64,000 bases of DNA from an uncultured Verrucomicrobiota bacterium (GCA_964395275.1 CAYNBQ010000003.1:5883-69882), one strand, 5' to 3'. Positions 9,862-28,199 are shown, numbered from the stretch's first letter. Made by a program: numbers and translations. The notes: generated from the sequence alone by a model not told the origin.

Positions 9862-9887
9862 GGAAACGGGCGGGGAGAAGGAAGAAA

Positions 9888-10514
9888 ATGGGCAGGTATA
9901 CGGACGCCGTCTGCCGCTTGTGCCGTCGGGAACAGACGAAGTTGTTCCTGAAGGGCGACCGTTGTTACACGGCGAAATGCGCGATCGAGAAGGGGCGCTC
10001 CGTACCGGGCATGCACATGCCGCGGCGGCGCAAGCCCTCGGAATACGCGGAGCAGCTTCGCGCCAAGCAGAGTCTGCGGCGCTACTACAGTCTTTCCGAG
10101 CACCAGTTCCGCCTGGTCTTCCAGCGGGCCTCGCGGCAGCGGGGCGTGACCGGCGAGGTCCTGCTGCAGATGCTGGAATCGCGCCTGGACAACGTGGTTT
10201 TCCGTCTCGGCCTGGCGACCTCCCGCGCCGCGGCGCGGCAGATGATCCGGCACAACCACATCCTGGTGAACGGGCGGAAGGTGAACATTCCCTCCTACAC
10301 CGTCCGGCCCAACGACGTCGTCCAGGTGAAGGAGTCGCCGGTCAGCCGGCAGATGGCCCAACGGGCGATGAATTCGACGGGGAGCCGGCCCGTGCCGGGA
10401 TGGTTGAGCCTGAACCCGGATCTCTTCCGCGGCGAGGTACTGCGGTTGCCCGAACGGGACGAAATCCAGCCGGTGGCGAACGAGCAGCTCGTCGTTGAGC
10501 TGTACTCGAAGTAG
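9888..10514 (+). CDS. rpsD: 30S ribosomal protein S4
   Basis: MGRYTDAVCRLCRREQTKLFLKGDRCYTAKCAIEKG... shows the S4 zinc-finger-like N-terminus and S4 domain. Confidence 0.9.
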   Translation: MGRYTDAVCRLCRREQTKLFLKGDRCYTAKCAIEKGRSVPGMHMPRRRKPSEYAEQLRAKQSLRRYYSLSEHQFRLVFQRASRQRGVTGEVLLQMLESRLDNVVFRLGLATSRAAARQMIRHNHILVNGRKVNIPSYTVRPNDVVQVKESPVSRQMAQRAMNSTGSRPVPGWLSLNPDLFRGEVLRLPERDEIQPVANEQLVVELYSK

Positions 10515-10580
10515 ACCAAGGTTTGCCCGCGCGACGATTCGACCGAATCGTCGGCTCGGACATTCGGGAGAGAACAGACG

Positions 10581-11651
10581 ATGGCAATCCGACTGAGCCG
10601 ATTCGAGATGCCCCGGCATCTCATCCGCGACGATGAGACCGCCACCGCGACGTACGCGAAGTTCATCGCCGAGCCCCTGGAAGCCGGTTACGGCTACACG
10701 CTCGGCAACTCGCTGCGGCGCGTCCTCCTTTCCTCGCTGGAAGGGGCGGCGATCTGTCGGGTGAGGATCCAGGGCGCCGATCATGAATTCCAGACGTTGG
10801 ACGGAGTCGTCGAAGACGTCACCGACATCATCCTGAACATCAAACGGATCCTGTTGAAGGTAGCCGACAAGGACAATCCGCCGATGCTGCGGATCGACGT
10901 GAACCGGGAGGGGGAGGTCACCGCCGGCGACATCGAGCTGCCGGCCGGGGTCGAGATCCTGAACCCGGACCTGGTGCTCTGCACGCTGAACAAGAAGCGG
11001 CGTTTCCAGGCGGAGTTCGAGGTGGCGGTGGCGCGCGGCTACGTCCCGGCGGACGAGAACAAGGTGCCGGACATGCCGATCGGCACGATCCCGGTCGATT
11101 CGCTCTTTTCGCCGGTCCGGCGCGTGAAGTACGAGGTGGAGAACACGCGCGTCGGGCAGCGCACGGACTACGACAAGCTCGTGCTGGAAATCTGGACGGA
11201 CGGCCGGGTCGGTCCGGAAGACGCCCTGGTGCTCTCGGCGGAGATCCTGAAGCGGCACATCGAGTTCTTCCGCAGCTACGACAAGGACAAGAAGATCGAG
11301 TTCGAAGAGGACGTCGAGCGCGAGAGCGAGGAACGGAACCGTCTGCGCAAGGTCCTGAACATGAGCGTCAACGAGATCGAGTTGTCGGTCCGCGCGGCGA
11401 ACTGCCTGAACAACGCGAACATCACCACGGTGGGGCACCTGGCGCAGAAGACCGAGGCGGAGATGCTCAAGTACCGGAACTTCGGCAAGAAGTCGCTCAA
11501 CGAGATCCGGGAGAAGCTCGCGGAACTCGGCAAGCAGGCCGGCGTGGAACTGACGTTGGGCATGAAGTTCGATTCCGATCTGCTGGAACCCGCGCCCGGC
11601 AGCGGGGAAGAAGAAGCCGCGGCGGTTCCGGCCCCCGACCGGGAATCCTAG
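10581..11651 (+). CDS. rpoA: DNA-directed RNA polymerase subunit alpha
   Basis: 356-aa ORF ...TLGNSLRRVLLSSLEGAAI... with alpha NTD and CTD. Confidence 0.95.
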   Translation: MAIRLSRFEMPRHLIRDDETATATYAKFIAEPLEAGYGYTLGNSLRRVLLSSLEGAAICRVRIQGADHEFQTLDGVVEDVTDIILNIKRILLKVADKDNPPMLRIDVNREGEVTAGDIELPAGVEILNPDLVLCTLNKKRRFQAEFEVAVARGYVPADENKVPDMPIGTIPVDSLFSPVRRVKYEVENTRVGQRTDYDKLVLEIWTDGRVGPEDALVLSAEILKRHIEFFRSYDKDKKIEFEEDVERESEERNRLRKVLNMSVNEIELSVRAANCLNNANITTVGHLAQKTEAEMLKYRNFGKKSLNEIREKLAELGKQAGVELTLGMKFDSDLLEPAPGSGEEEAAAVPAPDRES

Positions 11652-11675
11652 AGAGACGGCCACGGAGGACCTTCG

Positions 11676-12083
11676 ATGCGACACCGCAAGTTGACCGTCA
11701 AACTGGGCCGCACGTCGGCACATCGAAACGCCATGCTCGCCAACCTGGTCTGCAGCCTGATCGAACACGGCCGGGTGGTCACCACCGCGGCCAAGGCGAA
11801 GGCCGCGCGGCCGCTGGCCGAGAGGATGGTGACGCTCGGCAAGCGGGGATCGCTGCCCGCCCGGCGGCGCGCCGTCTCGATCCTGAAACAGCGCGACGCC
11901 GTCAGGAAGCTCTTCGACGAGATCGCCCCCCGCTTCGCGGACCGGCCCGGGGGCTATACGCGGATCGTGCTGATGCCCCCGCGCATCGGCGACGCCGCCC
12001 CGCGCGCCCTGATCGAGTGGGTGACCGAATCGGCGGGTGCGAAGCCGACCTCGCGCAAGAAGAAGGAACGCTCCCGGAAGTGA
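11676..12083 (+). CDS. rplQ: 50S ribosomal protein L17
   Basis: MRHRKLTVKLGRTSAHRNAMLANL... matches the L17 consensus. Confidence 0.95.
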   Translation: MRHRKLTVKLGRTSAHRNAMLANLVCSLIEHGRVVTTAAKAKAARPLAERMVTLGKRGSLPARRRAVSILKQRDAVRKLFDEIAPRFADRPGGYTRIVLMPPRIGDAAPRALIEWVTESAGAKPTSRKKKERSRK

Positions 12084-13552
12084 CGGACCGAGGAGAGCCG
12101 GTGCCGCCGCGCGCCCTTCTGGAAGAGGCCGTGGCCTCGGCCCGGCGCGCGGGCGCCGGATACGCGGATGTCCGCTTCGTCTTCCGGCGCCAGGAGTCGA
12201 TCCAGGTCCGGAACGGGAAGGTCTCCGGGATCTCCCGGTCGACGGATTCCGGGATCGGCGTCCGGGTTCTGAAGAACGGGGCCTGGGGATTCTCGGCGAC
12301 GGCCGATCTCTCGGGGCGAGCCGTTCGCGACGCGGCCCTTCGAGCCGTGGAGATCGCGGAGGCGTCGGCCGTCCTGCGCCGCGAACCCGTGGAACTCGAC
12401 GACACCCCGCCGTCGGTCGCCCGCTGGGAGAGCCCCTGCGAACGGGACCCGTTCGAGGTCCCCCTTTCCGAGCGGATCGCGTTTCTCGCGGATCTCACCG
12501 GGGCCCTGCGGCGGGATTCGAGGATCCGCAGCGCGGAAGCCGGATTGCAGGCGATGCGCACCCTCAAGGTCTTCCACAGTTCCGAAGGGGCGTTCATCGA
12601 ACAGCGCATTACGGAGACCGGAGCGGGGATGAAGGCCGTGGCGGAAGACCGCGGCGAGGTTCAACACCGCTCCTACCCGTCGGCCTTCGGGGGGGACATG
12701 GCGGCGCGGGGGTACGAATTCGTCGAGGGACTCGCCCTGGCGGATCATGTGGAAGAGGTCCGCGAGGAGGCGGTCGCCCTCTGCTCGGCGCCGGCCGTGC
12801 CCGAGGGGGAGGCGGACCTGATCCTGGAGGGTTCGCAGCTCGCGCTGCAGATCCACGAGTCCTGCGGCCATCCGACCGAACTCGACCGGGCCCTGGGAAC
12901 GGAGATCAGTTTCGCCGGCGGCAGTTTTCTCTCCCCGGATCTCCTGGGTTCGTTCCGGTACGGATCGGACCGGGTGACGATCGTTGCGGACGCCACGGTG
13001 CCGGGGTCGATCGGCTCCTTCGGATACGACGACGAAGGCGTTCCGGCACAGCGGGTTCCCCTGGTCGAAGAGGGGGTTTTCGTGGGGTATCTCTCGTCGC
13101 GGGAAACCGCGCCGAGGATCGGGCGTCGAAGCTCCGGGGCGATGCGGGCCGACGGCTGGAATCGCATTCCGCTGGTCCGGATGGTCACCGTGAGCCTGGA
13201 ACCGGGCGAGGGAACGCTGGAAGAGCTGATCTCCGACACGAAGAACGGCTGGCTCTTTTCCACGAACAAGTCCTGGTCGATCGACGACGTCCGGTTGAAT
13301 TTCCAGTTCGGGTGCGAATGCGCGCGGCGGATCCGCAACGGCCGGTTGGAGGGGTTGTACCGCAACCCCGTCTACACCGGAATCACGCCGCGGTTCTGGA
13401 ACTCGTGCGACGCGGTCTGCGGCCCCGGGGACTGGAGGGTCTGGGGCGTGCCGAACTGCGGCAAGGGCGAACCGATGCAGACGATGCACGTGGCCCACGG
13501 CGCCGCGCCGGCGCGTTTCCGCGGGGTGCGGATCGGGGGAAGCGGCCGGTGA
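12080..13552 (+). CDS. tldD: TldD-family metalloprotease (TldD/PmbA peptidase U62)
   Basis: ORF contains HESCGHPTE and the GxC...GxC C-terminal motifs of TldD. GTG start overlaps the rplQ stop (GTGA). Exact start uncertain (alternative GTG at 12101). Confidence 0.85.
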   Translation: MTDRGEPVPPRALLEEAVASARRAGAGYADVRFVFRRQESIQVRNGKVSGISRSTDSGIGVRVLKNGAWGFSATADLSGRAVRDAALRAVEIAEASAVLRREPVELDDTPPSVARWESPCERDPFEVPLSERIAFLADLTGALRRDSRIRSAEAGLQAMRTLKVFHSSEGAFIEQRITETGAGMKAVAEDRGEVQHRSYPSAFGGDMAARGYEFVEGLALADHVEEVREEAVALCSAPAVPEGEADLILEGSQLALQIHESCGHPTELDRALGTEISFAGGSFLSPDLLGSFRYGSDRVTIVADATVPGSIGSFGYDDEGVPAQRVPLVEEGVFVGYLSSRETAPRIGRRSSGAMRADGWNRIPLVRMVTVSLEPGEGTLEELISDTKNGWLFSTNKSWSIDDVRLNFQFGCECARRIRNGRLEGLYRNPVYTGITPRFWNSCDAVCGPGDWRVWGVPNCGKGEPMQTMHVAHGAAPARFRGVRIGGSGR

Positions 13553-17307: not shown

Positions 17308-17997
17308 CTACCATTCCATCGGTTCGATTTCTCCGAGGAGAACCTTCCGGCGCCGTTCAATGATCTCGGCACGGGCCTCGCGGCGGCGCTTCAGGCTTCG
17401 GCGGAGGCGTTCGAGTTCCTCTTCGAGTCGCGCGACTTCCCGTTCGCGCTGTTCCTGTTTGAGATCGAAGATCCGTTCCAGAAGGTCGTTGAGTTCCCGG
17501 ACGGCCTTTTCCTTTTCCGCTCCTTCCAGGTTGCGGGCGCGTTCGGCGATCCGGTGGCTTTTCTCCTCGAGCCGTTCGGTCTCGACGAATTGCCGGAACC
17601 GCTCGGGATCCCTTTCCCGCAGCTCGCGCAGTTCCATGGCCTCGGGAATCCGGCGCCGGACCTCCTCGGCGTAGGCCGCCGGATCGCGATCCCGAAGGCG
17701 GCGGAGTTCCTCCGCCTCGCCCGGGTGGATCTCTTCGAGCAGCGACATCACGAGGTTCTCCTGTTCGGGCGGCAGCGGGGGACGGGGCATCATGCCGCCC
17801 GGGGGCGCTTCGCCGGGCGGGCGCATGCCGGGGCCTCCGAACGGGGGCATTCCTCCCCCGGGACCGGGCCACGTCATGGGGCGGAACGCGTCGGGGGGCG
17901 GGGGCGGCGGCCCGGGTTCGCCTTCGAAGGCGCCGGCGGAGAGGACGGCCGTCGCGGCGAGCGCGACGATCAGGGTTGCGGTGCAGAACGGTTTCAT
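17308..17997 (-). CDS. Secreted Spy/CpxP-like (LTXXQ-type) periplasmic helical protein with Pro/Gly-rich linker
   Basis: N-terminal signal peptide MKPFCTATLIVALAATAVLSA, then a PGGM/PP-rich segment, then charged helical repeats (EELRRLRDRDPAAY...RELRERDPERF...). ATG overlaps the anti-sigma stop. Confidence 0.5.
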   Translation of the reverse strand: MKPFCTATLIVALAATAVLSAGAFEGEPGPPPPPPDAFRPMTWPGPGGGMPPFGGPGMRPPGEAPPGGMMPRPPLPPEQENLVMSLLEEIHPGEAEELRRLRDRDPAAYAEEVRRRIPEAMELRELRERDPERFRQFVETERLEEKSHRIAERARNLEGAEKEKAVRELNDLLERIFDLKQEQREREVARLEEELERLRRSLKRRREARAEIIERRRKVLLGEIEPMEW

Positions 17998-18467
17998 GAC
18001 GGATCTCCTTTCGTGTGTGATCCGATGGCTGCGTCTTCGAGAAAGGGATCGTTTCCGGTCGACCGCGCGGCTCGCCGGATCCGGTCCCGGAGACGTTCGC
18101 AGCGCAGCAGGAAGGGATCGTCGGGGCCCCCGGCAACGGTTCCGCGAAGAATGCCGCGCTCGACGGTCAGCAGGGCCAGGGCGATCTGCGGATCGGTGGC
18201 GTAGATCGGCGGGGCGTTCCCGGGCGCCGGGGAGATTGCATCGGGGTATCGCGCTTCGGAGACGACGCGTGCCTGCCGCATCCGGGAGCCGGCCAGAAGG
18301 ATCAGCGTGAAGAACAGGACGCCCGTCGCCAGGGCGAGGAGAGGGCCGGAGGCGAGGCGCCGGCGCCGTCGGAGCGAGGCCTCACGGCGTGCGCGTGCGA
18401 AGACGAGGTCGAAGGCGGGGGGCGCCGGGTCGATCTCGGCGCGGGGGGGACGAGGGGAAGGGTTCAT
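17994..18467 (-). CDS. Anti-sigma factor (single-pass membrane)
   Basis: Short cytoplasmic segment, one TM (LLALATGVLFFTLILLAG), periplasmic tail. ATG overlaps the ECF sigma stop (ATGA). Confidence 0.55.
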   Translation of the reverse strand: MNPSPRPPRAEIDPAPPAFDLVFARARREASLRRRRRLASGPLLALATGVLFFTLILLAGSRMRQARVVSEARYPDAISPAPGNAPPIYATDPQIALALLTVERGILRGTVAGGPDDPFLLRCERLRDRIRRAARSTGNDPFLEDAAIGSHTKGDPS

Positions 18468-19024
18468 GGCGATGATTCTCCTCCCGGGGCCAGTTCCCGG
18501 AGCGAGGAACGGAGGTGACGGACGGCGTCGCGCATGCGCCCCAAAGCCGTGCCGAGAGGACATCCGGTGATTTGCGCGATCTCGCGGAAGGGCAGGCCCC
18601 GCTGGATCCGCAGAAGGAAGACGCGTCGTTGCGCGGGGTGAAGTTCGTCGAGGGCGGCGCGGATCCGGACCAGCGTTTCCTCGGCGATTGCGCGCCGGTC
18701 CGGCCGGTCGCTCTCCGGAGCGCGAAGATCGGCGAGGTCGTCGAACGGGATCGGGCGGCGCCGGCGGGCCCGATCGACCACGAGATGCGAGGCGATGGTG
18801 AAGACCCAGGATTCGAACGAACCCGAGGGACGGAAGCGCCCGATCTTTCGCAGGACGCGCACGTAGGTTTCCTGCAGGAGATCCTCCGCGTCGTGAGGGT
18901 CGCCGACGGCCTTCAACAGATAGGCCCAGAGGCGCGGATGCAGGGGTTGCAGCAGGGCTTGCAGCGCCTCGTGATCGCCTCTGCGGGCGCGTGCGATCCG
19001 GTCGCGTTGTTCGGAAGAGTCCAT
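18464..19024 (-). CDS. ECF (sigma-70 family group IV) RNA polymerase sigma factor
   Basis: 186 aa with sigma-2 (LLQETYVRVLRKIGRFRPSGSFESWVFTIA) and sigma-4 (LPFREIAQITGCPLGTALGRM) regions. Confidence 0.85.
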   Translation of the reverse strand: MDSSEQRDRIARARRGDHEALQALLQPLHPRLWAYLLKAVGDPHDAEDLLQETYVRVLRKIGRFRPSGSFESWVFTIASHLVVDRARRRRPIPFDDLADLRAPESDRPDRRAIAEETLVRIRAALDELHPAQRRVFLLRIQRGLPFREIAQITGCPLGTALGRMRDAVRHLRSSLRELAPGGESSP

Positions 19025-19163
19025 CGTTTCACCCGGTACAACGAACCCACCATAGGGTTTATTGGCCGGTGCGCATATTCCGCCGGAAGGGGATGAGGGC
19101 CGTCGTCGCGCGCGCGGGCCCGGTGCGCGCGATCCTTTTGGGCTGGAGACCGGGGCGCGGCTT

Positions 19164-19172
19164 GGTACAATC
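19164..19172 (+). promoter_or_regulatory. Candidate extended -10 promoter element (TGGTACAAT) for the downstream 7-gene operon
   Basis: An AT-rich TGnTACAAT stands out in 70% GC DNA, about 55 nt upstream of ATG 19225, in the divergent intergenic region shared with the ECF sigma operon. Confidence 0.3.
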
Positions 19173-19224
19173 TCGGCCTTCGCGCCTGGGAGAAGGGTCC
19201 CGGCGGCGTCGTCAATCGGTGGGA

Positions 19225-19614
19225 ATGCCTCAGAAACCGTCTCGGAAATGGACCGCAGCCGTGCGGCATGCCTTTGCCGTCGCCGAAAGGGGCGACGAGA
19301 AGCTGTCGCCGGAGGAGGTGGAACTCCTCGACCGGATTGCGGAGAAGATCGCCCGGCGCGGGTTGATCGCGCCGGCCGTTCTCTTTCTGGAGACGATGCG
19401 GCCGATGAACTACGTGGGGGCCCAGTTCGTTCAGTTCGCCGCTCCCTTCCTGGACATGGTTTCGACGCCGGGCCTGCGGGAACGGGTCGTGGCCCTGATG
19501 GAGCGCCGGTCGACGGCCGAGGAACTCCTGCAGCGCCTCGAGGCGTATCGGGGGCTCGAACGGGGCGGGGGAACGTTGTCCGGCGGGGCCGGGATGCGGG
19601 GGGACGCGCGATGA
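19225..19614 (+). CDS. Hypothetical small protein, first gene of MutL-like operon
   Basis: 130-aa ORF MPQKPSRKWTAAVRHAFAVAERGDEKLSPEEVELLDRIAEKIARRGL... Stop overlaps the next ATG (ATGA). Confidence 0.5.
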   Translation: MPQKPSRKWTAAVRHAFAVAERGDEKLSPEEVELLDRIAEKIARRGLIAPAVLFLETMRPMNYVGAQFVQFAAPFLDMVSTPGLRERVVALMERRSTAEELLQRLEAYRGLERGGGTLSGGAGMRGDAR

Positions 19615-21404
19615 GCGATCGGACGCTGCAGGTCGCGATCGCCACCGACTGCGGCAGCACGACCACGAAGGCGATCCTGATCGAGCGGAAGGACGGGGTC
19701 TACCGGCAGACGTACCGGGGCGAGGCGCCGACGACCGTCGAGGCCCCCTTCGAGGACGTCACCCGCGGCGTGCTGAACGCCATCCAGGAGGTCGAGGAAC
19801 TCTCGGGACGCACGATCCTCGACGGCGAGAGGATCATCACGCCCTCCGGCGACGGCCGGGGCGTGGACATCTACGTCTCCACCTCCAGCGCCGGGGGCGG
19901 GTTGCAGATGATGGTGGCGGGCGTGGTGAAGTCCATGACGGCCGAGAGCGCCCAGCGCTGCGCCCTGGGGGCCGGCGCCATCGTGATGGATGTGCTGGCC
20001 TCCAACGACGGGCGGCAGCCGCACGAGAAGATCGAGCGGATGCGCCGTCTGCGTCCGGACATGATCCTCCTGTCGGGCGGGACCGACGGCGGCACGGTCT
20101 CGCACGTGGTCCAGCTGGCGGAGTTCATCGCCGCGGCGGATCCGCGGCCGCGGTTCGGTTCCACCTTCAAGCTTCCGGTGATCTATGCCGGCAACCGGGA
20201 CGCGCGCGAGGAGATCCGGCGGATCCTCGGGGAGAAAACCGCGCTGGTGATCACCGAGAATCTCCGGCCGGTGCTGGAGCGGGAGAACCTCGCGCCGGCG
20301 CGGCACAAGATCCACGACCTCTTCCTGGAACACGTCATGGCCCAGGCGCCGGGGTATGCGAAACTGATCTCGTGGACGCATGCGCCGATCATGCCGACGC
20401 CGGGGGCCGTGGGACTGATCATCGACAGCATCGCCCGACGCCAGGAGCTGAACGTGATCGGGGTGGACATCGGGGGCGCCACGACGGACGTCTTCAGCAG
20501 TTTCTCGGGCCAGTTCAACCGCACGGTGAGCGCGAATCTCGGCATGTCCTACAGCGTCTCCAACGTCCTTGCGGAGGCGGGACTGGAGAACGTGCGCCGC
20601 TGGATGCGGGCGGAGATCGAGGACCAGGATCTCCGGGACCGGGTGAAGAACAAGATGATCCGGCCGACGACCGTGCCGCAGCTTCTCGAGGACCTGGAAC
20701 TCGAACAGGCCCTGGCGCGCGAGGCGCTGCGCCTGGCCTTCGATCAGCACCGGATGCTGGCGGTCGGGCTCAAGGGCGTGCAGCGCGAGAGGACGATCTC
20801 GGACGCCTTCGAACAGAGCGGTTCCGGATCCTCCCTGATCCGGCTGATGGATCTCGATCTGCTCGTCGGCTCCGGCGGTGTCCTGTCGCACGCGCCGCGC
20901 CGGGTTCAGGCGATGATGATGCTCATCGACGCCTTCCAGCCCGAGGGGGTGACCCGACTGGCGGTCGACAGCATCTTCATGATGCCGCACCTCGGCGTCC
21001 TGTCGCAGGTGAACGAGCAGGCGGCCCTGGAGGTATTCGACCACGACTGCATGATTTACCTGGGAACCTGCATCGCCCCGGTCGGCGCGGCGCGGGCGGG
21101 CGACCCGGCCTTCCGCTGCCGGATCACCCGGAACGGCCGGACCGAGGAAGAGAAGATGCGCTTCGGGGAGATCCGGATCCTTCCGCTGGCGGAGGACGAG
21201 GAAGCGGAGGTGGAGATCCTTCCCGGGCGCCGGTTCGACGCCGGGGAAGGGAAGGGACGACCCCTGGAACGGAGGGTGCGGGGCGGCGTGGTCGGCCTGG
21301 TCCTCGACGCCCGCGGCCGCCCGATTCAGCACGCGGCCGATCCGGCGGAGGCGCGGCGCGCGCTGGACTCCTGGTGGAAGGCCGTGGGGATGTATCCCGC
21401 GTGA
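19611..21404 (+). CDS. MutL/GlmL-family ASKHA-fold ATPase (glutamate-mutase-accessory-like), 597 aa
   Basis: N-terminal VAIATDCGSTTTKAILIE is the MutL/GlmL signature. Second ATPase lobe GVDIGGATTDVFS. Confidence 0.75.
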   Translation: MSDRTLQVAIATDCGSTTTKAILIERKDGVYRQTYRGEAPTTVEAPFEDVTRGVLNAIQEVEELSGRTILDGERIITPSGDGRGVDIYVSTSSAGGGLQMMVAGVVKSMTAESAQRCALGAGAIVMDVLASNDGRQPHEKIERMRRLRPDMILLSGGTDGGTVSHVVQLAEFIAAADPRPRFGSTFKLPVIYAGNRDAREEIRRILGEKTALVITENLRPVLERENLAPARHKIHDLFLEHVMAQAPGYAKLISWTHAPIMPTPGAVGLIIDSIARRQELNVIGVDIGGATTDVFSSFSGQFNRTVSANLGMSYSVSNVLAEAGLENVRRWMRAEIEDQDLRDRVKNKMIRPTTVPQLLEDLELEQALAREALRLAFDQHRMLAVGLKGVQRERTISDAFEQSGSGSSLIRLMDLDLLVGSGGVLSHAPRRVQAMMMLIDAFQPEGVTRLAVDSIFMMPHLGVLSQVNEQAALEVFDHDCMIYLGTCIAPVGAARAGDPAFRCRITRNGRTEEEKMRFGEIRILPLAEDEEAEVEILPGRRFDAGEGKGRPLERRVRGGVVGLVLDARGRPIQHAADPAEARRALDSWWKAVGMYPA

Positions 21405-21411
21405 GGATTCG

Positions 21412-22545
21412 ATGATGGCGAAGAGCGCACACGCCTACACCCCCGGCCTGAAGGTCGCCAAACGGACGATCGTCCGGAAACGCCGGCTGCTGCCGATTCC
21501 CGGGAGCGTGCTGGTGGAGAAAGGCGAGCGGGTGACGCGCGACCGGGTCGTGGCGCGCACCGAGCTGCCGGGCGACGTGCAGACGGTGAACGTCGTGAAC
21601 CTCCTGGGGATCACTCCCGAGGAAATCGACGAGTACATGTTGAAAAGGGAGGGCGACCCGGTCGAGCGCGACGAGGTGATCGCCGAGACGCGCCCCTGGC
21701 TGAAATGGTTCCGTTCCTCGGCGAAATCCCCGGTGTCCGGGACGATCGAAAGCGTTTCGAAGGTGACGGGCCAGGTCATGGTGCGCGAACCGCCGAAACC
21801 CGTGGAGGTGCAGGCCTACATCGACGGCGTCGTCGTGGAGGTGATCCCGAACGAGGGCGTCGAGATCGAGACGCCTGCGGCGTTGATCCAGGGCATCTTC
21901 GGAGTCGGCGGCGAAGGGTGGGGCGAGATCGCCGCGGTCGTCGAACCCGGGGACCCGTTCACGGCGGATCGGATCCGGCCGGAACACCGGGGCAAGATCC
22001 TCGTCGGCGGATGCCTGGTCGACGGCGACGCCCTGCAGCGGGCCGTCGAGGTCGGGGCTGCCGCGGTGGTGACCGGCGGCATGCACGATGCGGATCTCCG
22101 CCGGCTGCTCGGCTACGACATCGGCGTGGCGATCACCGGCGAGGAGGAGATCGGGCTGACGCTGATCCTGACGGAGGGATTCGGCGAGGTCCGGATGGCG
22201 GAACGCACCTGGCGGCTGCTCCGGGAGAACGAGGGGCGCGTGGCGGCGGTCAGCGGCGCCACGCAGATCCGCGCGGGGGTGCTGCGACCCGAGATCATCG
22301 TCGCCCTCGAGGGAGGGGAAGAGGCGAAGGGCGCGGGCGAAGATGCGACCGGCGGGTTGAAGATCGGCGACTGGATCCGCGTGATCCGCCAGCCGTGGTT
22401 CGGTCGGCTCGGCCGTGTTCGGGGCCTCCCGGCGGAACTGCAGCAGGTCGAATCCGAGAGCCGCGTACGCGTTCTCGAGGTGGAATTCGAAGGAGGGGAA
22501 ACCGTGATGTTGCCGCGAGCCAACGTGGAGATCATCGAACAGTGA
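21412..22545 (+). CDS. Hypothetical soluble protein (hybrid-barrel-like N-terminus, KOW-like C-terminus)
   Basis: 377-aa ORF 8 nt after the MutL-like gene. Stop overlaps the next GTG. Confidence 0.6.
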   Translation: MMAKSAHAYTPGLKVAKRTIVRKRRLLPIPGSVLVEKGERVTRDRVVARTELPGDVQTVNVVNLLGITPEEIDEYMLKREGDPVERDEVIAETRPWLKWFRSSAKSPVSGTIESVSKVTGQVMVREPPKPVEVQAYIDGVVVEVIPNEGVEIETPAALIQGIFGVGGEGWGEIAAVVEPGDPFTADRIRPEHRGKILVGGCLVDGDALQRAVEVGAAAVVTGGMHDADLRRLLGYDIGVAITGEEEIGLTLILTEGFGEVRMAERTWRLLRENEGRVAAVSGATQIRAGVLRPEIIVALEGGEEAKGAGEDATGGLKIGDWIRVIRQPWFGRLGRVRGLPAELQQVESESRVRVLEVEFEGGETVMLPRANVEIIEQ

Positions 22546-23756
22546 AGGCCGGCCGACGGATCCCGGGGGTTTCGTGGGTCGTGGCGGCGGTCTCGATCGC
22601 GGCCTGCGCTTCTCCGGCGGTCGCCGCCGGCGAGGCGTCCGGGGCCGGCGGGCGGGCCGTCTCTCCGGAAGGCGCGCCGCGGAACGTGGCCGTACGGGAC
22701 ACCAGCGAGGGTCGCGGCGGGGTGCTGACGATCACCTGGGAATGGCCGGAGGACCGGCCCGTGGACGGATTCATCGTCTTGCGATCGACCGACGGCTCGG
22801 CATGGGTCCAAGCGGATGCGGTGGGTCCCTCGGCCAGGAAATGCCTGGATACGTCGCTGGCGAGAACGGACCGGGTTCGTTACTTCTACCGGGTCGGCGC
22901 CCGCAGGGACGGGGAGGTGACCTACGGAGCCCCCGTCGGGCCGGTGGCGTCCCCGGGGGCGTGGTTCAAGAGGGAACGGATCACCGTGCTGATCGCGTCC
23001 CTGATTTTCGGGACGCTGGTCGTGGTCTTCATCCGGCTCGCGAAGGCGGGGCGGCCGCTGAAGGTCCGTCCGATCGCGGGGATCCAGGCCCTGGAGGAGG
23101 CCGTCGGGCGGGCCACGGAACAGGGGCGGCCGGTCCTGTACTCGCCGGGGCTGAACGGTCTGAGTTCGATTTCGACGCTGGCGTCGCTGTCGATTCTCAG
23201 CCGTGTCGCGGAGAAGGTGGCGGAATACGGCACGCGGCTGATCATGCCCAACCGGGATCCGATCGTGATGTCGGTGGCGCAGGAGACGGTCCGGGAGTCC
23301 TACACGCGGGTGGGTCGTCCCGACGCCTTCAATCCGGACGACATCTTCTTCGTGACCGACGAGCAGTTCGCCTACGTGGCGGCGGTCGACGGGATCATGC
23401 TGCGCGAACGGCCGGCGACGAACATCTACATGGGGGCCTTCTACGCCGAATCGCTCCTGTTGGCGGAGACGGGGGCCTCGACCGGGGCGATCCAGATCGC
23501 CGGCACGGATTCCGAGGCGCAGCTCCCGTTCTTCATCGCGGCGTGCGACTACACGTTGATCGGCGAGGAACTCTACGCGGCGGGCGCCTACATGGGGCAC
23601 GATCCGGGACTGCTGGGCAGCCTGAAGGGACAGGACTGGGCGAAGGGCATCGTGATCGCGCTGATGACGATCGGGATCCTGATCACGACGTTGATCGTGT
23701 TCTTCCCCAGGCTCGACGGTCTCCTGTTCCTGCAGCGATGGATGGAGAAGGGATAG
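22542..23756 (+). CDS. Hypothetical membrane protein: signal peptide, FN3-like domain, TM, large domain, C-terminal TM
   Basis: GTG overlaps the upstream stop. Signal/TM VSWVVAAVSIAACASPAVAAG, TM ITVLIASLIFGTLVVVFI, C-terminal TM IVIALMTIGILITTLIVFF. Confidence 0.6.
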   Translation: MKAGRRIPGVSWVVAAVSIAACASPAVAAGEASGAGGRAVSPEGAPRNVAVRDTSEGRGGVLTITWEWPEDRPVDGFIVLRSTDGSAWVQADAVGPSARKCLDTSLARTDRVRYFYRVGARRDGEVTYGAPVGPVASPGAWFKRERITVLIASLIFGTLVVVFIRLAKAGRPLKVRPIAGIQALEEAVGRATEQGRPVLYSPGLNGLSSISTLASLSILSRVAEKVAEYGTRLIMPNRDPIVMSVAQETVRESYTRVGRPDAFNPDDIFFVTDEQFAYVAAVDGIMLRERPATNIYMGAFYAESLLLAETGASTGAIQIAGTDSEAQLPFFIAACDYTLIGEELYAAGAYMGHDPGLLGSLKGQDWAKGIVIALMTIGILITTLIVFFPRLDGLLFLQRWMEKG

Positions 23757-23760
23757 GTCG

Positions 23761-24387
23761 ATGAAACGATCCGCTCCCCTGATTGCGGCCTTCCTGATGG
23801 GGGTCTTCATGTTCGTGCAGTACTTCGTGCCGAACGAGGGACTGAACGAGGTCTACCAGAGGTTCAACAAGTGGGCGTCGATCATCGGAGGCATCGGGAT
23901 CATCCTCGGTCTGGAAAGCCTTCTTCGCCACCACTGGACGCGCATCCGGCGGAAGGTGCCCGGGTGGGCCTACAGCGTGGTGACGCTCGTGGCGATGGTG
24001 GTGACGGCCGCCTTCGGATTCGCCCGGGGGACGGCACCGGGCACGCCGTTCGCGCAGATCTTCGACTACATCTTCACGCCGTTGAACGCGACGATGTTCT
24101 CCATCCTGGCCTTCTACATCGCCTCGGCCGCCTTCCGGGCGTTCCGCGCCCGCACGGTGGAGGCGACGCTGCTCCTGGCGGCGGCGGTGGTCGTGATGCT
24201 CGGCCGCGTCCCGATCGGCAACGTCATCGACGAGCGGATCCCGGAGATCGCGAGCTGGATCATGGCGTATCCGAACATGGCCGCGAAACGGGCCATCATG
24301 ATCGGAGTGGGACTCGGGGTGATTTCGACGTGCGTCAAGATCATCCTCGGGATCGAACGGGCCTACCTGGGCGGATCCCAGTCCTGA
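23761..24387 (+). CDS. Hypothetical integral membrane protein (about 4-5 TM)
   Basis: 208-aa hydrophobic ORF, 4 nt after the previous stop. Confidence 0.6.
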   Translation: MKRSAPLIAAFLMGVFMFVQYFVPNEGLNEVYQRFNKWASIIGGIGIILGLESLLRHHWTRIRRKVPGWAYSVVTLVAMVVTAAFGFARGTAPGTPFAQIFDYIFTPLNATMFSILAFYIASAAFRAFRARTVEATLLLAAAVVVMLGRVPIGNVIDERIPEIASWIMAYPNMAAKRAIMIGVGLGVISTCVKIILGIERAYLGGSQS

Positions 24388-24397
24388 GGAGGGCGGC

Positions 24398-25273
24398 ATG
24401 GTTACGCGATTCTTCGAGAAGATCCTGAACATGGACCGCCGGATCATCTTCGTGCTGATCTTCCTGGCGGCGGCCCTGCCCTTCCTCTTCCCCTTTGCGC
24501 AGCCGGTGCCGATCACCGACGAGGTTCGGGAGGCCTTCAACGCCGTGGAACGGATCGCGGCGGAACCGGGCCGGCACAAGCCGCTCCTGCTGTCCCTGGA
24601 TTTCGATCCGACCACGGCGCCGGAACTGCGCCCGATGGCCGACGCGATCCTGCGGCACTGTTTCCGGCGCGAGATCCCGGTGATCGTCATGACCCTGATC
24701 GCCTCGGGCGACGTGCTGGCCAACAACATCACGGAGCGGATCGCCCGGGAAGAGGGCGCCGAGCGGGGGACCGACTACGTCTACCTGGGCTACAAACCCG
24801 GAGTCGACGCGATCATCCGGCAGATCGGGGAGAACATCCGCAGGATCTATCCGCAGGATTCGCAGGGAACCTCGCTGGCCGACCTGCCGATCACCGCGAA
24901 CGTCACCAACTACGAGGATCTCTCCCTGGTCGTTTGTCTGGCGGGATCGGCGATCGTCGAGACGTGGATCGATTTCGCCGTGGCCCGCTACGGGGCGAAC
25001 TACTTCATGGGGGCCACGGGCGTGATGGCCTCGGGCCTCTATCCGTACATCGAGGCGGGACAGTCGCACGGGCTGCTCGGCGGGATGAAGGGGGCCGCCG
25101 AGTACGAGCGTCTTCTGATCGACAACGGCATCTACGACCGGTTCGGAACGGCGACCGCCGGCATGGGGGCGCAGTCGGCCACCCATTCCGTCATCGTCGT
25201 GCTGATCGTTCTCGGCAACATCGGGTATTTCCTCCAGCGCAGGAAGAGGCGCCGGGAAGGGGAGGCGGGTTGA
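24398..25273 (+). CDS. Hypothetical bitopic membrane protein (N- and C-terminal TM flanking a soluble domain)
   Basis: GAGGAGGG RBS. TM IIFVLIFLAAALPFLFPF near the N-terminus and VIVVLIVLGNIGYFL near the C-terminus. Confidence 0.6.
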   Translation: MVTRFFEKILNMDRRIIFVLIFLAAALPFLFPFAQPVPITDEVREAFNAVERIAAEPGRHKPLLLSLDFDPTTAPELRPMADAILRHCFRREIPVIVMTLIASGDVLANNITERIAREEGAERGTDYVYLGYKPGVDAIIRQIGENIRRIYPQDSQGTSLADLPITANVTNYEDLSLVVCLAGSAIVETWIDFAVARYGANYFMGATGVMASGLYPYIEAGQSHGLLGGMKGAAEYERLLIDNGIYDRFGTATAGMGAQSATHSVIVVLIVLGNIGYFLQRRKRRREGEAG

Positions 25274-26367
25274 TGACCTCGTTCTTCGAACTTCCGCTGA
25301 TGGTGATCTCGCCGCTGAGCGCGGTGGGGCTGTGGACCTGGGTCGGGGCGCTGCTGACCCTGGCGATCTTCTCCTTCCTGTGGCGGGACAATCCCGTCTA
25401 CCGGTTCGCCGAGCACCTCTTCGTCGGCGTTTCCATGGGGTACTTCCTGGTGCTGGTCTGGACCACGTCCACGTATCCCGACCTGGTGTTGCCGCTGTTC
25501 AGCGGCCACGAGAAATCGGCGCACGACCCGGACATCAGCATCCGGGACGGGGGCAGGATGGTCTTCACGGCGCAGGACTGGAACCGCGATCGGACCGTCG
25601 TTCTCGGGGCCGAACCGGACGCCGACCGGGAGAACGGGACCGCCGAGATCGAGGTGCGCATGACGCGCGGGGCCAACCGGATCGGCGCCGTTCGGGTGGA
25701 GGCGGTGGAGATCGACACGGACGCGGAGCCGTCGGAGATCCCCGCCGGGGCGGAAACCCTGCCGGTGCAGCCGAAGGACGACGCCCTGCGGTTCGTCCTG
25801 GATCGCACGACCGTGCCGATCAAGGAGGGAGGAACGGCCGAGTTCCGGGTGCGGCTCTCCCGGGCCCCCGCGGCGCCGGTCCATGCCGTGGCGGCGCGTG
25901 CGGATGCGGTTTCGACGGCCAACCGGCTCCTGTTGTTGATCCCCCTGGTGCTCGGCCTGATGCTCGTTTCCCGGATCGTTCCGCGGATCTCGTGGATGAG
26001 CCGGATCACGATCGGGCTGCTCGTGGGAATGGGCGCCGGCGCGGCGATCCCCGTCGTGATGAAGGCGAGGATTCTCACCCAGACGAGCCGCACGATGTCC
26101 CTGTCGCTCCTGGTGATGGAAAACGGTCAGTTCGACGCAATGGGCACCTTCAACAACCTCGTGCTGATCGTCGGGATCATCACCTCGCTGATCTACTTCT
26201 GGTTCTCCATCGAGCACAAGGGGCCGGTGGGCGTCGCGGCGAAGACCGGCATCTATTTCCTGATGGTCGGCTTCGGCGCCGCGTTCGGCTACACGGTGAT
26301 GGCGCGGGTCTCGCTGCTGATCGGGCGGGTTCTCTTCCTGTTGGACAACTGGCTGCAGGTCGTCTAG
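25273..26367 (+). CDS. Hypothetical polytopic membrane protein
   Basis: 364 aa. ATG overlaps the upstream stop (TGATG). Multiple TMs at both ends with a central hydrophilic domain. Confidence 0.6.
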   Translation: MTSFFELPLMVISPLSAVGLWTWVGALLTLAIFSFLWRDNPVYRFAEHLFVGVSMGYFLVLVWTTSTYPDLVLPLFSGHEKSAHDPDISIRDGGRMVFTAQDWNRDRTVVLGAEPDADRENGTAEIEVRMTRGANRIGAVRVEAVEIDTDAEPSEIPAGAETLPVQPKDDALRFVLDRTTVPIKEGGTAEFRVRLSRAPAAPVHAVAARADAVSTANRLLLLIPLVLGLMLVSRIVPRISWMSRITIGLLVGMGAGAAIPVVMKARILTQTSRTMSLSLLVMENGQFDAMGTFNNLVLIVGIITSLIYFWFSIEHKGPVGVAAKTGIYFLMVGFGAAFGYTVMARVSLLIGRVLFLLDNWLQVV

Positions 26368-26442
26368 CGGCCCGTGGCGAAGGACGCACATGATCGAATT
26401 GCGGGGGCCCGCGAACGCAGGGCTCCGGCCGGAGAAGGGAAG

Positions 26443-27639
26443 ATGGCTTTCCTGCGTGCCGTCGATCCGAAACTGATCGAACGCACCGTGGAGATCCGAA
26501 GGAGGATCCACGCGGCGCCGGAGCTTTCCTTCGAGGAACATCGCACGGCCGCCCTCGTGGCCGAAGAGCTGGCGGAGACGCGCGCGACGGTGCGGACCGG
26601 CGTCGCCCGCACGGGGGTGGTGGCCAGGTTCGTTCGGGATCCGGATCTGCCGACCGTTGCGCTCCGCGCGGAGATGGACGCGCTGCCGATCCGGGAGGAG
26701 ACGGGCGTTCCGTACGCCTCGAGGAACGAGGGGATCATGCACGCCTGCGGCCACGACGGGCACACGGCGATCCTGCTCGGGGTATCGCGGATCCTGGACG
26801 AACGGATCGACGATTTTCCCGGAAACGTGGTGCTGATCTTTCAGCCCGCCGAGGAGAACGGCGGCGGCGGAAGGGAGATCGTGGAGGCCGGCGTGCTGGA
26901 CGACCCGCCGGCGTGCGGCGCCGCGGCGTTGCACGGCTGGACCCTGCTGGACGTCGGCGATGTCGGGATCGGCAGCGGCCCGATTCTGGCGGCCACCGAC
27001 GGGTTCCACGTCGAGATCGAGGGACCGGGGGGCCACGGCGCCCACCCGGACCGGACGGTCGACGTGGTGCTGGTGGCGGCACGGGTGATCGAATCGCTGC
27101 ACTCGGTGGTTTCGCGCGAGGTGGATCCGGTCGAGCCGGCCGTGATTTCCGTCGGCCGAATCCAGGGGGGCAGCGCCAACAACGTCATCCCGAATCGCGT
27201 CGAGATGGCGGGGACGATCCGCAGCCTCCGCGAGGAGACGCGGCGGTTTCTCTCCCGGAGGGTCCGGGAGATCGCGGAGGGCACGGCGCACATGGCGGGC
27301 GGCCGGGCCGCGGTGACGATCCACGAAGGCTATCCGGTGACCCGCAACGATCCCGACCTGTCGAACCTCTTCCGGGATGTGGCGGCCGATCTGCTGGGAG
27401 AGGAGCACGTGCATTTCTTGACGCAACCGAGCATGGGCGGCGAGGACTTCAGCTATTACGGGGCGAGGGTCCCGTCGGTGATGTTCCGACTGGGCGTGCG
27501 CCGTCCCGGGGCCCGGGAATGGCCGTCGCTGCACACGTCGCGGTTCGATTTCAGCGACGAGGCGATTCCGGTGGGCATGCTCACGCTGGTGAACTTTGCG
27601 GCGGCGATTCTGAAGCGGCACGTCGAATCGCGCGATTGA
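26443..27639 (+). CDS. M20D-family amidohydrolase (N-acyl-amino-acid / hippurate hydrolase-like)
   Basis: IHAAPELSFEEHRTA...MHACGHDGHTAILLG... metal-binding motifs. GGAGAAGGGAAG RBS. Confidence 0.85.
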   Translation: MAFLRAVDPKLIERTVEIRRRIHAAPELSFEEHRTAALVAEELAETRATVRTGVARTGVVARFVRDPDLPTVALRAEMDALPIREETGVPYASRNEGIMHACGHDGHTAILLGVSRILDERIDDFPGNVVLIFQPAEENGGGGREIVEAGVLDDPPACGAAALHGWTLLDVGDVGIGSGPILAATDGFHVEIEGPGGHGAHPDRTVDVVLVAARVIESLHSVVSREVDPVEPAVISVGRIQGGSANNVIPNRVEMAGTIRSLREETRRFLSRRVREIAEGTAHMAGGRAAVTIHEGYPVTRNDPDLSNLFRDVAADLLGEEHVHFLTQPSMGGEDFSYYGARVPSVMFRLGVRRPGAREWPSLHTSRFDFSDEAIPVGMLTLVNFAAAILKRHVESRD

Positions 27640-27835
27640 AAAGCATTTTCCCGTCGCTCCCGGCGGGGCCGGCGCGAACGAACGGATCGGCAAGAATTTC
27701 CGGCAGCTTCCGCGTGCAGAGGGGGCGTCCTGGGGCGCGGTTCCCCCTCGGCGTCGTCCGGGGGGCGGGCGGGAAGGGGCGGCGCCTCGGTCGAGAAGTA
27801 ATCCGGCGCGGGAACCGCGCGGCCGCCGGTCGATG

Positions 27836-27853
27836 GAAAATCCAGGATTTTTC
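27836..27853. promoter_or_regulatory. Inverted repeat GAAAATCC-A-GGATTTTTC in an AT-rich island
   Basis: Near-perfect 8-bp-arm palindrome inside an unusually AT-rich, ORF-free stretch (about 27830-27960), upstream of the candidate ncRNA promoter. Confidence 0.25.
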
Positions 27854-28168
27854 ACGATCGAAACGCGTAACATGCGGTATTGAAGGCGGTTGCGGAGCAA
27901 ATGACACCCGGCCATGGTGCGTGCGAAATCATTGGAAAATTTTTTCGTTCTTGCGTTTTCGCCTCCGTTCCGCGGGCCGGCGGCGACCCTGTGAATAACT
28001 TCCGCGGGAGGAATCGCGGAGGGATCCCCGCGTAACCCGGCGCGGTTCAGGCACTTGGAAATCCGTGCCGGGAAGGCGTTTTCTCGATTCTCACAGGTTG
28101 TTCACAGGGGTGCGGACGGTGGGGCCGGGGGCCGGTTGCGGGCCGGTGCGGGGGCGGTCGTCGGGGGA

Positions 28169-28196
28169 GTTGACAACCCCGGGGAATGGGGTATCC
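28169..28196 (+). promoter_or_regulatory. Sigma70-type promoter (TTGACA-16-TATCCT)
   Basis: Consensus -35 TTGACA at 28169-28174 and -10 TATCCT at 28191-28196. No protein-coding gene lies downstream on the + strand. Confidence 0.45.
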
Positions 28197-28199
28197 TGA

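Follow-up and report, generated by a model that had tools for sequence, protein, structure and literature searches.

A co-inherited seven-gene unit joins a MutL/GlmL-type ASKHA ATPase to four membrane proteins: a possible ATP-driven translocator

Results

The window analysed here, a stretch of 64,000 nucleotides, carries seven + strand genes between positions 19225 and 26367 (here g1 to g7), in which every junction is an overlap or a gap of at most 10 nt. The ATGA shared by g1 (19225-19614, 129 aa) and g2 (19611-21404, 597 aa) makes a 4-nt overlap; g3 (21412-22545, 377 aa) follows after a gap of 7 nt and itself overlaps g4 (22542-23756, 404 aa, GTG start) by the 4 nt of a GTGA. Gaps of 4 and 10 nt precede g5 (23761-24387, 208 aa) and g6 (24398-25273, 291 aa), and g7 (25273-26367, 364 aa) overlaps g6 by 1 nt, at a TGATG. 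All seven ORFs are present as the initial annotation described them, as are the overlaps and near-abutments, except that the g2/g3 gap is 7 nt and not 8. The gene calls are backed independently by identical g2–g7 products in a public protein collection (from a 73-kb NCBI contig), and the g1 start at 19225 agrees with the starts of its homologues.

Upstream lies a divergent − strand operon (17308-19024), which encodes an ECF-type sigma factor (18464-19024), a putative membrane anti-sigma (17994-18563) and a secreted, Glu/Arg-rich protein of 229 aa (17308-17997). The sigma factor was confirmed by matches to Sigma70_r2 and Sigma70_r4_2; the other two proteins belong to no family, so that no family match supports the ‘Spy-like’ label formerly given to the 229-aa protein. 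This operon is a local neighbour and not part of the conserved system. In the shared intergenic region (19025-19224), a promoter and terminator scan recovered the extended −10 noted previously, within a sigma-70-like promoter match (TGGAGA-16-TACAAT, TG-extended −10, 19144-19171); a hairpin with a T-run after it lies just upstream (19109-19141). Both are consensus matches only; the closest relative, L041, retains the hairpin with its TTTT and the −10-like element. Downstream, a gene for an M20-family amidohydrolase/peptidase (26374-27639, + strand; Peptidase_M20 and M20_dimer) starts 7–73 nt past g7 and, because no terminator-like site lies between them, may be co-transcribed with g1–g7. No such gene was seen behind g7 in other lineages, and it is outside the conserved core.

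The small, helical g1 protein has a hydrophobic core (LIAPAVLFLETxRPxNYVGxQF) and no match in Pfam or NCBIfam; it is a probable membrane-associated adaptor. Its homologues adjoin g2 in most loci, and at two Eisenbacteria loci (L014 and L015) a g1 homologue adjoins g4, without g2/g3. An eighth small membrane protein, ‘g0’, is part of the system elsewhere and is missing from the operon in the window.

The view of g2 as a MutL/GlmL-type ASKHA ATPase is upheld by the DCGSTTTKA motif and by a match to Pfam MutL (PF13941) over residues 10–480 at E = 3.3e-129 and 432 bits (cut-off 27). It nevertheless scores below the cut-offs of the NCBIfam GlmL models (232 versus 475 bits for NF040745, E = 9e-69; 206 versus 600 for NF040744; 167 versus 204 for TIGR01319). 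The protein ends in a beta-rich extension of ~115 aa, and no relative with a solved structure was found. Across 15 g2 homologues, with a mean column identity of 67%, the phosphate-1, phosphate-2 and adenosine motifs do not vary, which makes g2 a likely active ATPase. Its identity to homologues named from other phyla (Gemmatimonadota, Latescibacterota) is 72–74%. As proposed earlier, g2 stands outside a glutamate-mutase context: glmS/glmE were absent from its immediate neighbours and from the ten larger ORFs profiled in the window, and the annotated neighbourhoods of the related loci contained neither these nor any other B12-dependent aminomutase.

Three domains make up g3: a barrel-sandwich hybrid at the N terminus, a swivelling beta/beta/alpha domain in the middle and, at the C terminus, a KOW/SH3-like barrel, which had been suspected from the start and is now backed by an Spt5 KOW match; docking-type folds are thereby paired with a mobile one. 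Homologues are numerous (492 representatives of 50% identity clusters at E ≤ 1e-30), those named from other phyla are 57–62% identical, and an N-terminal H-x-Y-T-P-G-L is invariant. Two candidate roles do not fit fully. The fold fits a lipoyl/biotinyl carrier, but there is no conserved modifiable Lys at the hairpin tip, where residue 94 is split almost evenly between Arg (59) and Lys (58) among 120 homologues and the window protein carries Arg. It also fits a PEP-utilising mobile domain or PTS Enzyme I, but PF00391 gives no match and the His of the phospho-His loop (GG-x-TSH, position 225) is not invariant, being His in 83, Arg in 22 and Asp in 7 of the 120; the swivelling domain has no Pfam match at E ≤ 10 even when isolated. 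Natural g2–g3 fusions of ~1000 aa (995 and 1003 aa), found in two lineages and each in several assemblies, indicate that g2 and g3 work together.

The remaining four genes encode membrane proteins. In g4 (PF20539, E = 1.5e-114) a signal peptide is followed by an outside FN3 domain, a TM helix, a Rossmann-like DUF6754 domain and a C-terminal TM helix; hydropathy and charge place DUF6754 in the cytoplasm by the positive-inside rule. Residues 300–345 are acidic and invariant (CDYTLIGEE), including an invariant Cys, and in an AF2 model of pLDDT 77 residues 306–340 are of low confidence. Polytopic g5, oriented N-in with a conserved TMFxxLAFxIASAAxRAFRxR, belongs to no family found and always lies directly after g4 in related loci; it had been called a 4-TM protein, the number returned by a hydropathy scan, while reading of the sequence favours ~6. 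In g6 an N-terminal RR-containing signal-anchor precedes a ~215-aa domain, probably periplasmic, a C-terminal TM helix and a basic tail. R14-R15 is nearly invariant (≥90%) and E237, inside a conserved GAAEYE motif, is invariant; 34 family members share no Pfam match and g6 has no PDB relative. The g7 protein is polytopic, with ~6 TM helices and a lineage-specific insert of ~130 aa (about residues 85–215), absent from its homologues of 200–290 aa, which we infer to be extracytoplasmic. No family was found for g7 or its insert. The g5 and g7 proteins are mutually non-homologous, and g5–g7 contain no conserved cofactor-binding Cys or His motifs. In both fold searches FN3 matches crowded out any structural neighbours of the g4 DUF6754 domain and of g5–g7.

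Pfam, NCBIfam, PADLOC and PDB gave no family assignment for g1, g3, g5, g6 or g7, and none of the seven proteins matches a PADLOC anti-phage model. In profile searches g1–g7 showed no sequence resemblance to known transporter, channel or secretion proteins, and no search placed them in a known pathway, transporter or pilus system, a placement that on the initial annotation's own terms would have refuted it.

The system is present in more than a dozen bacterial lineages, including Nitrospirota, Planctomycetota, Gemmatimonadota, Latescibacterota, Zixibacteria, Ignavibacteria, Eisenbacteria, WOR-3 and Symbiobacterium/Bacillota. The order g1–g7 is identical in Candidatus Nitrospira bockiana, a second Nitrospira-like contig, a Planctomycetota MAG and three large genomes; the start/stop overlaps recur in Ca. 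N. bockiana and in at least one large genome. The seven genes are one co-inherited, very highly conserved unit, as had been supposed from their close packing, and the strong conservation of gene order in related genomes removes a potential objection to that view.

The unit is built from two modules, soluble (g1-g2-g3) and membrane (g4-g5-g6-g7), which are permuted, duplicated or set apart across loci, yet remain linked, with up to three membrane modules per locus. Arrangements include [g4-g7][g1-g3][g4-g7] (L001, L003), g2 with three tandem membrane modules (L002), [g4-g7] followed by two g2-g3 pairs (L024, L027) and g4-g7-g2-g3-g1 (L028). In Zixibacteria, Ignavibacteria and WOR-3, the membrane module at many loci lacks a g2/g3 in the 10 kb around it. 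Membrane-module copies in one genome are only 54–60% identical, a divergence that fits different specificities.

Neighbouring genes in other lineages include the housekeeping genes lipA, lplA, mreB, era, accA, obg, metK and fab genes. At L039/L044, oppABC lie within the cluster and oppDF, as separate genes, behind it with Tricorn. Aminotran_4 and an orphan SBP_bac_5 directly precede the cluster in one large genome, Ldh_2 and 2-Hacid_dh genes lie near another large-genome locus, and the Symbiobacterium neighbours are an S58 peptidase, asparaginase II, a PLP enzyme and an amidohydrolase. The gene near L002 taken for ‘EI’ is in fact PPDK. The recurrence of peptide and amino-acid neighbours, to which the M20 enzyme gene in the window belongs, hints at a peptide or amino-acid-derived cargo. 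This is speculative: such neighbours occur in only ~5 of 11 lineages and are absent in Nitrospira, WOR-3 and Zixibacteria, where housekeeping genes take their place, and no substrate-indicating riboswitch was found.

Discussion

We found no paper describing the seven-gene system, which is previously undescribed in the literature; its wide spread, two-module build and g2–g3 fusions are new here. The domain folds, and the topology of g1–g6, are as described above. We tentatively propose that g1–g7 form a two-module machine of the cytoplasmic membrane, an ATP-driven translocator with an actin-fold ATPase, although the case falls short of an even one. Cytoplasmic module A would comprise g2 as the ASKHA ATPase and g3 as its obligate partner, probably tethered to the membrane by g1 and elsewhere by g0. 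Module B would be a membrane complex of ~16 TM helices, made up of bitopic g4, g5 and g7 with ~6 TM helices each, and bitopic g6 with its periplasmic domain. On this proposal g2 would bind and hydrolyse ATP, the swivelling domain of g3 would pass the movement of g2 to the cytoplasmic domain of g4, and a conformational cycle of g4–g7 would shift a substrate across or into the membrane; one soluble module could serve several diverged membrane modules. We infer the ATP-driven coupling of g2/g3 to the membrane complex, while transport by g4–g7 is speculative. We know of no role for ASKHA ATPases in powering transport, which counts against a translocator, as do the absence of any sequence resemblance to known transporters and the membrane modules that have no g2/g3 nearby. 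So does the view, held without direct proof, that the GlmL family are chaperone-like reactivases (PMC4682846).

That view leads to a different and rather doubtful reading, in which g2/g3 would spend ATP on resetting, loading or exchanging a cofactor or subunit of a membrane enzyme formed by g4–g7; the membrane complex would be the client and nothing would be transported. Resetting of B12 enzymes is the role ascribed to GlmL, EutA and DdrA. The g2 protein is a clear GlmL homologue by its NF040745 match, and GlmL/MutL has been called a chaperone that reactivates glutamate mutase (PMC4682846). A possible client exists in the Rossmann-like cytoplasmic domain of g4, whose invariant acidic segment with its Cys could be an active site. 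Set against this, no B12-dependent enzyme or B12-binding motif was found in or near any examined locus and no cobalamin riboswitch in the window or 22 related loci; g4 gave no match to the GlmS B12 domain (hhalign probability 0.4%, with a provisional GlmS sequence); and g5–g7 offer no cofactor-binding Cys/His motifs. The several diverged membrane modules that accompany one soluble module are better explained by substrate diversity than by a single client enzyme. The actin/ASKHA fold of g2 might instead point to polymerisation or scaffolding in the manner of FtsA, MreB or PilM, with g2 anchored by g1 and g4–g7 and organising envelope synthesis. The FN3 and other periplasmic domains of the membrane proteins would suit such a role, as would the divergent placement of g3 relative to mreB-mreC-pbp2-rodA in a WOR-3 genome. 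We nevertheless think it improbable, since the mreB adjacency is a single case, Pfam matches to FtsA, MreB or PilM are absent and tandem diverged membrane modules are unexpected of a scaffold. GlmL-type proteins fall within the hydantoinase-like branch and, to our knowledge do not polymerise, which also speaks against a cytoskeletal role.

A phosphorelay resembling the PTS, in which g2 would take the phosphate of ATP, the swivelling domain of g3 carry it to the Rossmann-like domain of g4 in the role of EIIB, and g4 hand it to a substrate entering via g5/g7, could draw on the flavodoxin/Rossmann-like domain and invariant Cys of g4 and on a ptsI gene directly upstream of g4 in one Zixibacteria/Ignavibacteria clade. 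It is likewise improbable: the ptsI adjacency is limited to one close clade (g4 proteins 72–82% identical), more than a quarter of the g3 homologues sampled lack the loop His, and there is no Pfam match to PEP-utilizers or PTS proteins. The envelope-stress control suggested in the initial annotation, whereby the system would be an effector run by the divergent sigma/anti-sigma pair, fared worst on examination. An ECF-type sigma factor, a membrane protein and a secreted protein are indeed encoded divergently 200 bp away, and the arrangement persists in L041; this is, however, the only relative to keep it (g2–g4 products 72–83% identical), and any such control is therefore local at best. The sigma operon is absent from the loci examined in Nitrospira, Planctomycetota, the L039/L044 group, L043, L046, WOR-3, Zixibacteria and Bacillota. 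The one promoter-like match ahead of g1 resembles a sigma-70 rather than an ECF site. The identity that g2 retains to homologues named from other phyla is easier to reconcile with a core function than with an accessory stress system, and the very high conservation and housekeeping neighbours favour a constitutive one. We consider the stress reading very improbable.

A bolder claim, and an unlikely one at present, is that the system represents a new class of primary translocator, in which one ASKHA motor module with a swivelling partner serves interchangeable four-protein membrane modules. Its motor would then differ from ABC, P-type, rotary and AAA+ ATPases, and its role would be a housekeeping one at the core of many poorly studied phyla, namely Nitrospirota, Planctomycetota, Gemmatimonadota and some of the FCB group (Fibrobacterota-Chlorobiota-Bacteroidota).

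Comparison with known systems places these features in context. With GlmL/MutL, the glutamate mutase accessory protein, and Or-4 of ornithine aminomutase, g2 shares an ASKHA core of ~450 residues and the nucleotide-binding motifs. It differs from GlmL/MutL in falling under every NCBIfam cut-off, in being ~140 aa longer with a conserved C-terminal beta domain, in never adjoining glmS/glmE or oraS/oraE, and in its constant pairing, sometimes by fusion, with g3 and its linkage to four membrane proteins. The names ‘glutamate mutase L’ and ‘methylaspartate mutase’ that public annotation gives to g2 orthologues are homology transfers and probably wrong. DdrAB (PduGH) and EutA may share the theme of an ASKHA ATPase that works with a small second subunit and a swivelling beta/beta/alpha domain, and ATP-driven remodelling of a partner is a feature of these reactivases; here a separate protein carries the swivelling domain, together with barrel-sandwich and KOW domains, and the seven-gene system has no B12 enzyme partner.

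Like NqrA and RnfC, g3 starts with a barrel-sandwich hybrid, followed by an alpha/beta and a small beta domain, and by analogy with NqrA its place would be on the cytoplasmic side of a complex of small polytopic and bitopic subunits. It lacks, however, any FMN, Fe-S or NADH-binding motif; g4–g7 have no Pfam or NCBIfam match to Rnf-Nqr or FMN_bind subunits, and g5 and g7 bear no relation to one another. An actin-fold cytoplasmic protein together with bitopic inner-membrane proteins that bear periplasmic domains is also found in PilM-PilN-PilO and GspL-GspM, but there is no sequence relation, g2 retains all ATPase motifs, and no pilins, secretin or hexameric ATPase lie near the operon. ECF-type and ABC importers differ in turn, in that g1–g7 have no homology to an ABC ATPase, EcfT or S component and the ATPase is of the actin fold. 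The likeness to them lies in a comparable number of TM helices (~16), in the Opp parts (SBP_bac_5, OppBCDF) that two lineages have beside or among the cluster genes, and in the sharing of one cytoplasmic energising module by several diverged membrane modules, much as a single energising module feeds several S components in ECF-type importers.

Gene organization and chromosomal setting

Seven ORFs on the + strand make up the cluster: g1 (19225-19614, 129 aa), g2 (19611-21404, 597 aa), g3 (21412-22545, 377 aa), g4 (22542-23756, 404 aa), g5 (23761-24387, 208 aa), g6 (24398-25273, 291 aa) and g7 (25273-26367, 364 aa). ATGA joins g1 to g2, GTGA joins g3 to g4 and TGATG joins g6 to g7, while 7, 4 and 10 nt separate g2/g3, g4/g5 and g5/g6, respectively. 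The ORFs and junctions thus confirm the tightly coupled seven-gene layout described in the initial annotation, which was off by one nucleotide only. Third-position G+C is typical of coding DNA in all seven ORFs, the G+C content of the window is 65-70% throughout, and the products of g2 to g7 have identical entries, derived from an NCBI contig of 73 kb, among public protein sequences.

The cluster sits in the core chromosome. Upstream of it, a ribosomal-protein-like block containing secY (5579-6922) and rpoA (10581-11651) is followed by a TldD/PmbA gene (12017-13552), the whole spanning 160-13552. A PmbA/TldD-family gene also lies upstream of the cluster in L041, the closest related locus. An ECF-type sigma factor gene (18464-19024) is divergent from g1-g7, and in the 200-bp region between the two, 19144-19171 resembles a sigma-70 promoter whose -10 is TG-extended. 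Upstream of this promoter-like site is a G+C-rich hairpin followed by TTTT (19109-19141, +), which is conserved in L041 (~6600-6640) and could be a leader, an attenuator or a bidirectional element. Riboswitches were sought in the window and in 22 related loci, and none lies near any cluster.

An M20 amidohydrolase gene begins 7 nt after g7. The ~1.7 kb that follow it (27640-29340) show a marked A-over-T strand bias and include a sigma-70-like promoter match at 28170-28197; this stretch contains no ORF with coding-like codon-position G+C, and Rfam has nothing for it even at E<=1.

A widespread unit of two modules

Scanning a genome collection with g4 yielded 33 true loci in Zixibacteria, Ignavibacteria, Eisenbacteria and Bacillota, the last including a Symbiobacterium thermophilum MAG, and in almost every one g4-g5-g6-g7 lie side by side. 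Loci with the complete g1-g7 order, located by look-up of g2, g3 and g4 homologues, are found in Ca. Nitrospira bockiana, a second Nitrospira-like contig, a Planctomycetota MAG and three large genomes; the start/stop overlaps recur in these loci. Gemmatimonadota, Latescibacterota, Handelsmanbacteria, Nitrospinota, WOR-3, Coatesbacteria and Stahlbacteria are further sources of named homologues. The g3 family comprises 492 representatives (50% identity clusters, E<=1e-30), and there are >8000 clusters at 90% identity for each of g2, g3 and g4. Identity to homologues named from other phyla is 57-62% for g3 and 72-74% for g2, the latter in our judgement the level expected of core machinery.

The cluster genes form one co-inherited unit, whose two modules, soluble (g1-g3) and membrane (g4-g7), remain linked through rearrangement. 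In two loci (L001 and L003) the order is [g4-g7][g1-g3][g4-g7]; in L002, g2 is accompanied by three tandem membrane modules; in L024 and L027, [g4-g7] is followed by two g2-g3 pairs; and L028 has the order g4-g7-g2-g3-g1. Paralogous membrane modules within one genome are only 54-60% identical. Eisenbacteria have g0-g1-g4-g7, where g0 is an eighth, small membrane protein, with g2 and g3 not nearby. The cluster genes are dispersed in WOR-3, where g3 adjoins mreB, accA and era, and g4-g7 sit between mazG and wzi. Natural g2-g3 fusion proteins occur in two lineages, one of 995 aa (P0392) and one of 1003 aa (P0440 = HNW34126.1, Ca. Ozemobacteraceae), each being present in several assemblies, contigs and sources. 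Judged from the sequences, g2 and g3 act together.

The ATPase g2 and its partner g3

Residues 10-480 of g2 match Pfam MutL (PF13941, E 3e-129). They are followed by an extra C-terminal domain of ~115 residues, which is conserved across homologues and, in isolation, matches nothing in Pfam. In 15 homologues from many lineages all three ASKHA nucleotide-binding motifs are invariant and mean column identity is 67%; g2 carries the sequence features of an active ATPase. Its orthologues are publicly named 'glutamate mutase L' or 'methylaspartate mutase'. Since g2 scores under all three NCBIfam GlmL-type equivalog cut-offs and fails the GlmL gene-context test, these database names are probably misannotations.

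No family in Pfam or NCBIfam matches g3, and its isolated middle domain likewise matches nothing in Pfam. At the C-terminus is a KOW/SH3-like barrel similar to those of Spt5 and NusG. The extreme N-terminus carries the almost invariant motif H-x-Y-T-P-G-L: of 120 homologues, 119 have the Thr and every one has the other specified residues (His, Tyr, Pro, Gly and Leu). In 115 of them the protein begins M-(A/G)-H-A-Y-T-P-G-L, a stretch that falls at residues 5-13 (21424-21450) in the window, where g3, like that of its closest relatives, has four more residues in front. A relationship to DUF4438 was rejected on comparison.

In two unrelated lineages the gene directly before the cluster encodes a lipoate-attachment enzyme, of a different family in each: LipA in Nitrospira (L036:6694-7605, L045:6852-7730) and a member of the LplA/LipB family in L039 (352-1233) and L044 (6562-7335). 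Because of these genes, g3 was tested as a lipoyl/biotinyl carrier. The would-be modified hairpin residue is Arg in 59 of the 120 homologues and Lys in 58, so that g3 is not such a carrier and the upstream genes are an unexplained coincidence. A role as phospho-His carrier was also rejected, the equivalent position being His in only 83/120.

The membrane proteins

About 16 TM helices make up the membrane module, along with periplasmic domains and a single alpha/beta domain on the cytoplasmic side. The only member with a family is g4, which is DUF6754 (PF20539, E 1.5e-114). A structural model (pLDDT 77), taken with hydropathy and charge, predicts a signal peptide, an FN3 domain outside, a TM helix, a cytoplasmic Rossmann-like domain of four to five strands and a long C-terminal TM helix. 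Conservation peaks in residues 300-345, an acidic segment with an invariant Cys; the low confidence of the model there is what an interface or re-entrant element would give. Comparison of the cytoplasmic domain with the GlmS B12 domain led us to reject their equivalence, and no plasmid in PLSDB carries a match to g4.

Hydropathy and reading of the sequences indicate ~6 TM helices each for g5 and g7, which comparison rejected as paralogues, and for g6 an RR-containing N-terminal anchor, a probably periplasmic domain of ~215 aa and a C-terminal TM helix. The 34 g6 family members, all scanned with Pfam, share not even a weak match. The g7 of the window carries a lineage-specific insert of ~130 aa (residues ~85-215, 25525-25920), missing from all 28 homologues compared; alone it matches no Pfam family, and its sequence pattern may represent beta-sandwich repeats.

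For g1, g5, g6 and g7 there is no Pfam, NCBIfam or PDB sequence match, and among all PDB chains the profiles of the g2-g7 families matched FN3 and, weakly, the KOW of Spt5, but nothing else. Five of the seven cluster proteins are without any family, and one bears only a DUF number.

The small protein g0 (~140-180 aa), for which Pfam has no family, combines two TM helices with a soluble C-terminal part. In many lineages its gene immediately precedes g1 or g4 (L038:7050-7601, L039:1242-1706, L043:7463-7903, L044:7313-7741, L046:9297-9713, L014 ~9005-9390, L024:9381-9833); tblastn found no counterpart in the 64-kb window.

Neighbouring genes

Outside the window, L041 alone retains the divergent ECF sigma operon, and its g2-g4 products share 72-83% identity with those of the window; the envelope-stress control proposed in the initial annotation is accordingly not supported. 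Elsewhere the flanks vary by lineage and are mostly housekeeping genes, with peptide or amino-acid functions recurring in ~5/11 lineages. In the window the M20 amidohydrolase gene after g7 is the neighbour of this kind. Opp parts interleave with or abut the cluster in L039 (3875-9999 and 14741-16737) and abut it in L044 (14666-16657): in L039, g2 and g3 are separated by oppA, oppB, an IS element and oppC, and in both loci oppD and oppF come after g7, together with a Tricorn gene in this lineage. Directly upstream of the cluster in L046 are Aminotran_4 and an orphan SBP_bac_5 gene (7449-9284), the latter 13 nt before g0, while S58, asparaginase II, PLP enzyme and amidohydrolase genes adjoin the cluster in Symbiobacterium. 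To the same set belong the Ldh_2 and 2-Hacid_dh genes upstream in L043.

One close Zixibacteria/Ignavibacteria clade alone (L005, L006, L008, L011, L019, L020, L023, L030) has ptsI (PTS Enzyme I) and a bifunctional PGI/PMI gene, both in the region of ~3 kb immediately before g4-g7, with NTP_transferase, metK and ahcY downstream; no g1-g3 occur within 10 kb in this clade. PADLOC returned no matches, hence no sign of a defence system.

Discussion

We propose that ATP-driven movement in g2 would be passed to a swivelling domain of g3, and from there through the cytoplasmic domain of g4 to the membrane complex. More speculatively, the machine might translocate a substrate, peptides or amino-acid derivatives being conceivable candidates, and one motor might serve several diverged membrane modules, by analogy with ECF transporters. 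In the main rival reading a membrane enzyme would be the target of a chaperone or reactivase, in keeping with the action GlmL is believed to have (PMC4682846); nevertheless, any B12 signal is absent, and the multiplicity of membrane modules also argues against this reading. Envelope-stress, cytoskeletal and PTS-like explanations are weaker, each having been weakened by a specific test.

If the proposal of motor-driven transport is true, the system would represent a new way to energise membrane transport. Its distribution, fusions and modularity make it directly testable, and solving its function would close an annotation gap in thousands of genomes and show what GlmL-type ASKHA ATPases actually do. 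It occurs in environmentally important, genetically little-studied groups, including nitrite oxidisers, Planctomycetota, Gemmatimonadota and candidate phyla of the FCB (Fibrobacterota-Chlorobiota-Bacteroidota) group.

The interest of the system rests on its very high cross-phylum conservation and its absence from the literature searched. That literature, on DUF6754, on PF13941/GlmL/MutL/ASKHA and on glutamate mutase in Nitrospira, holds no description of it, which bears out the earlier suggestion of an undescribed membrane machine. With GlmL/MutL, g2 shares membership of the Pfam MutL family, but it differs in equivalog score and gene context. Of the other close counterparts (B12 reactivases, PEP-utilisers/PTS, lipoyl carriers, Rnf/Nqr, ABC/ECF, PilMNO and defence systems), not one passes its defining tests here.
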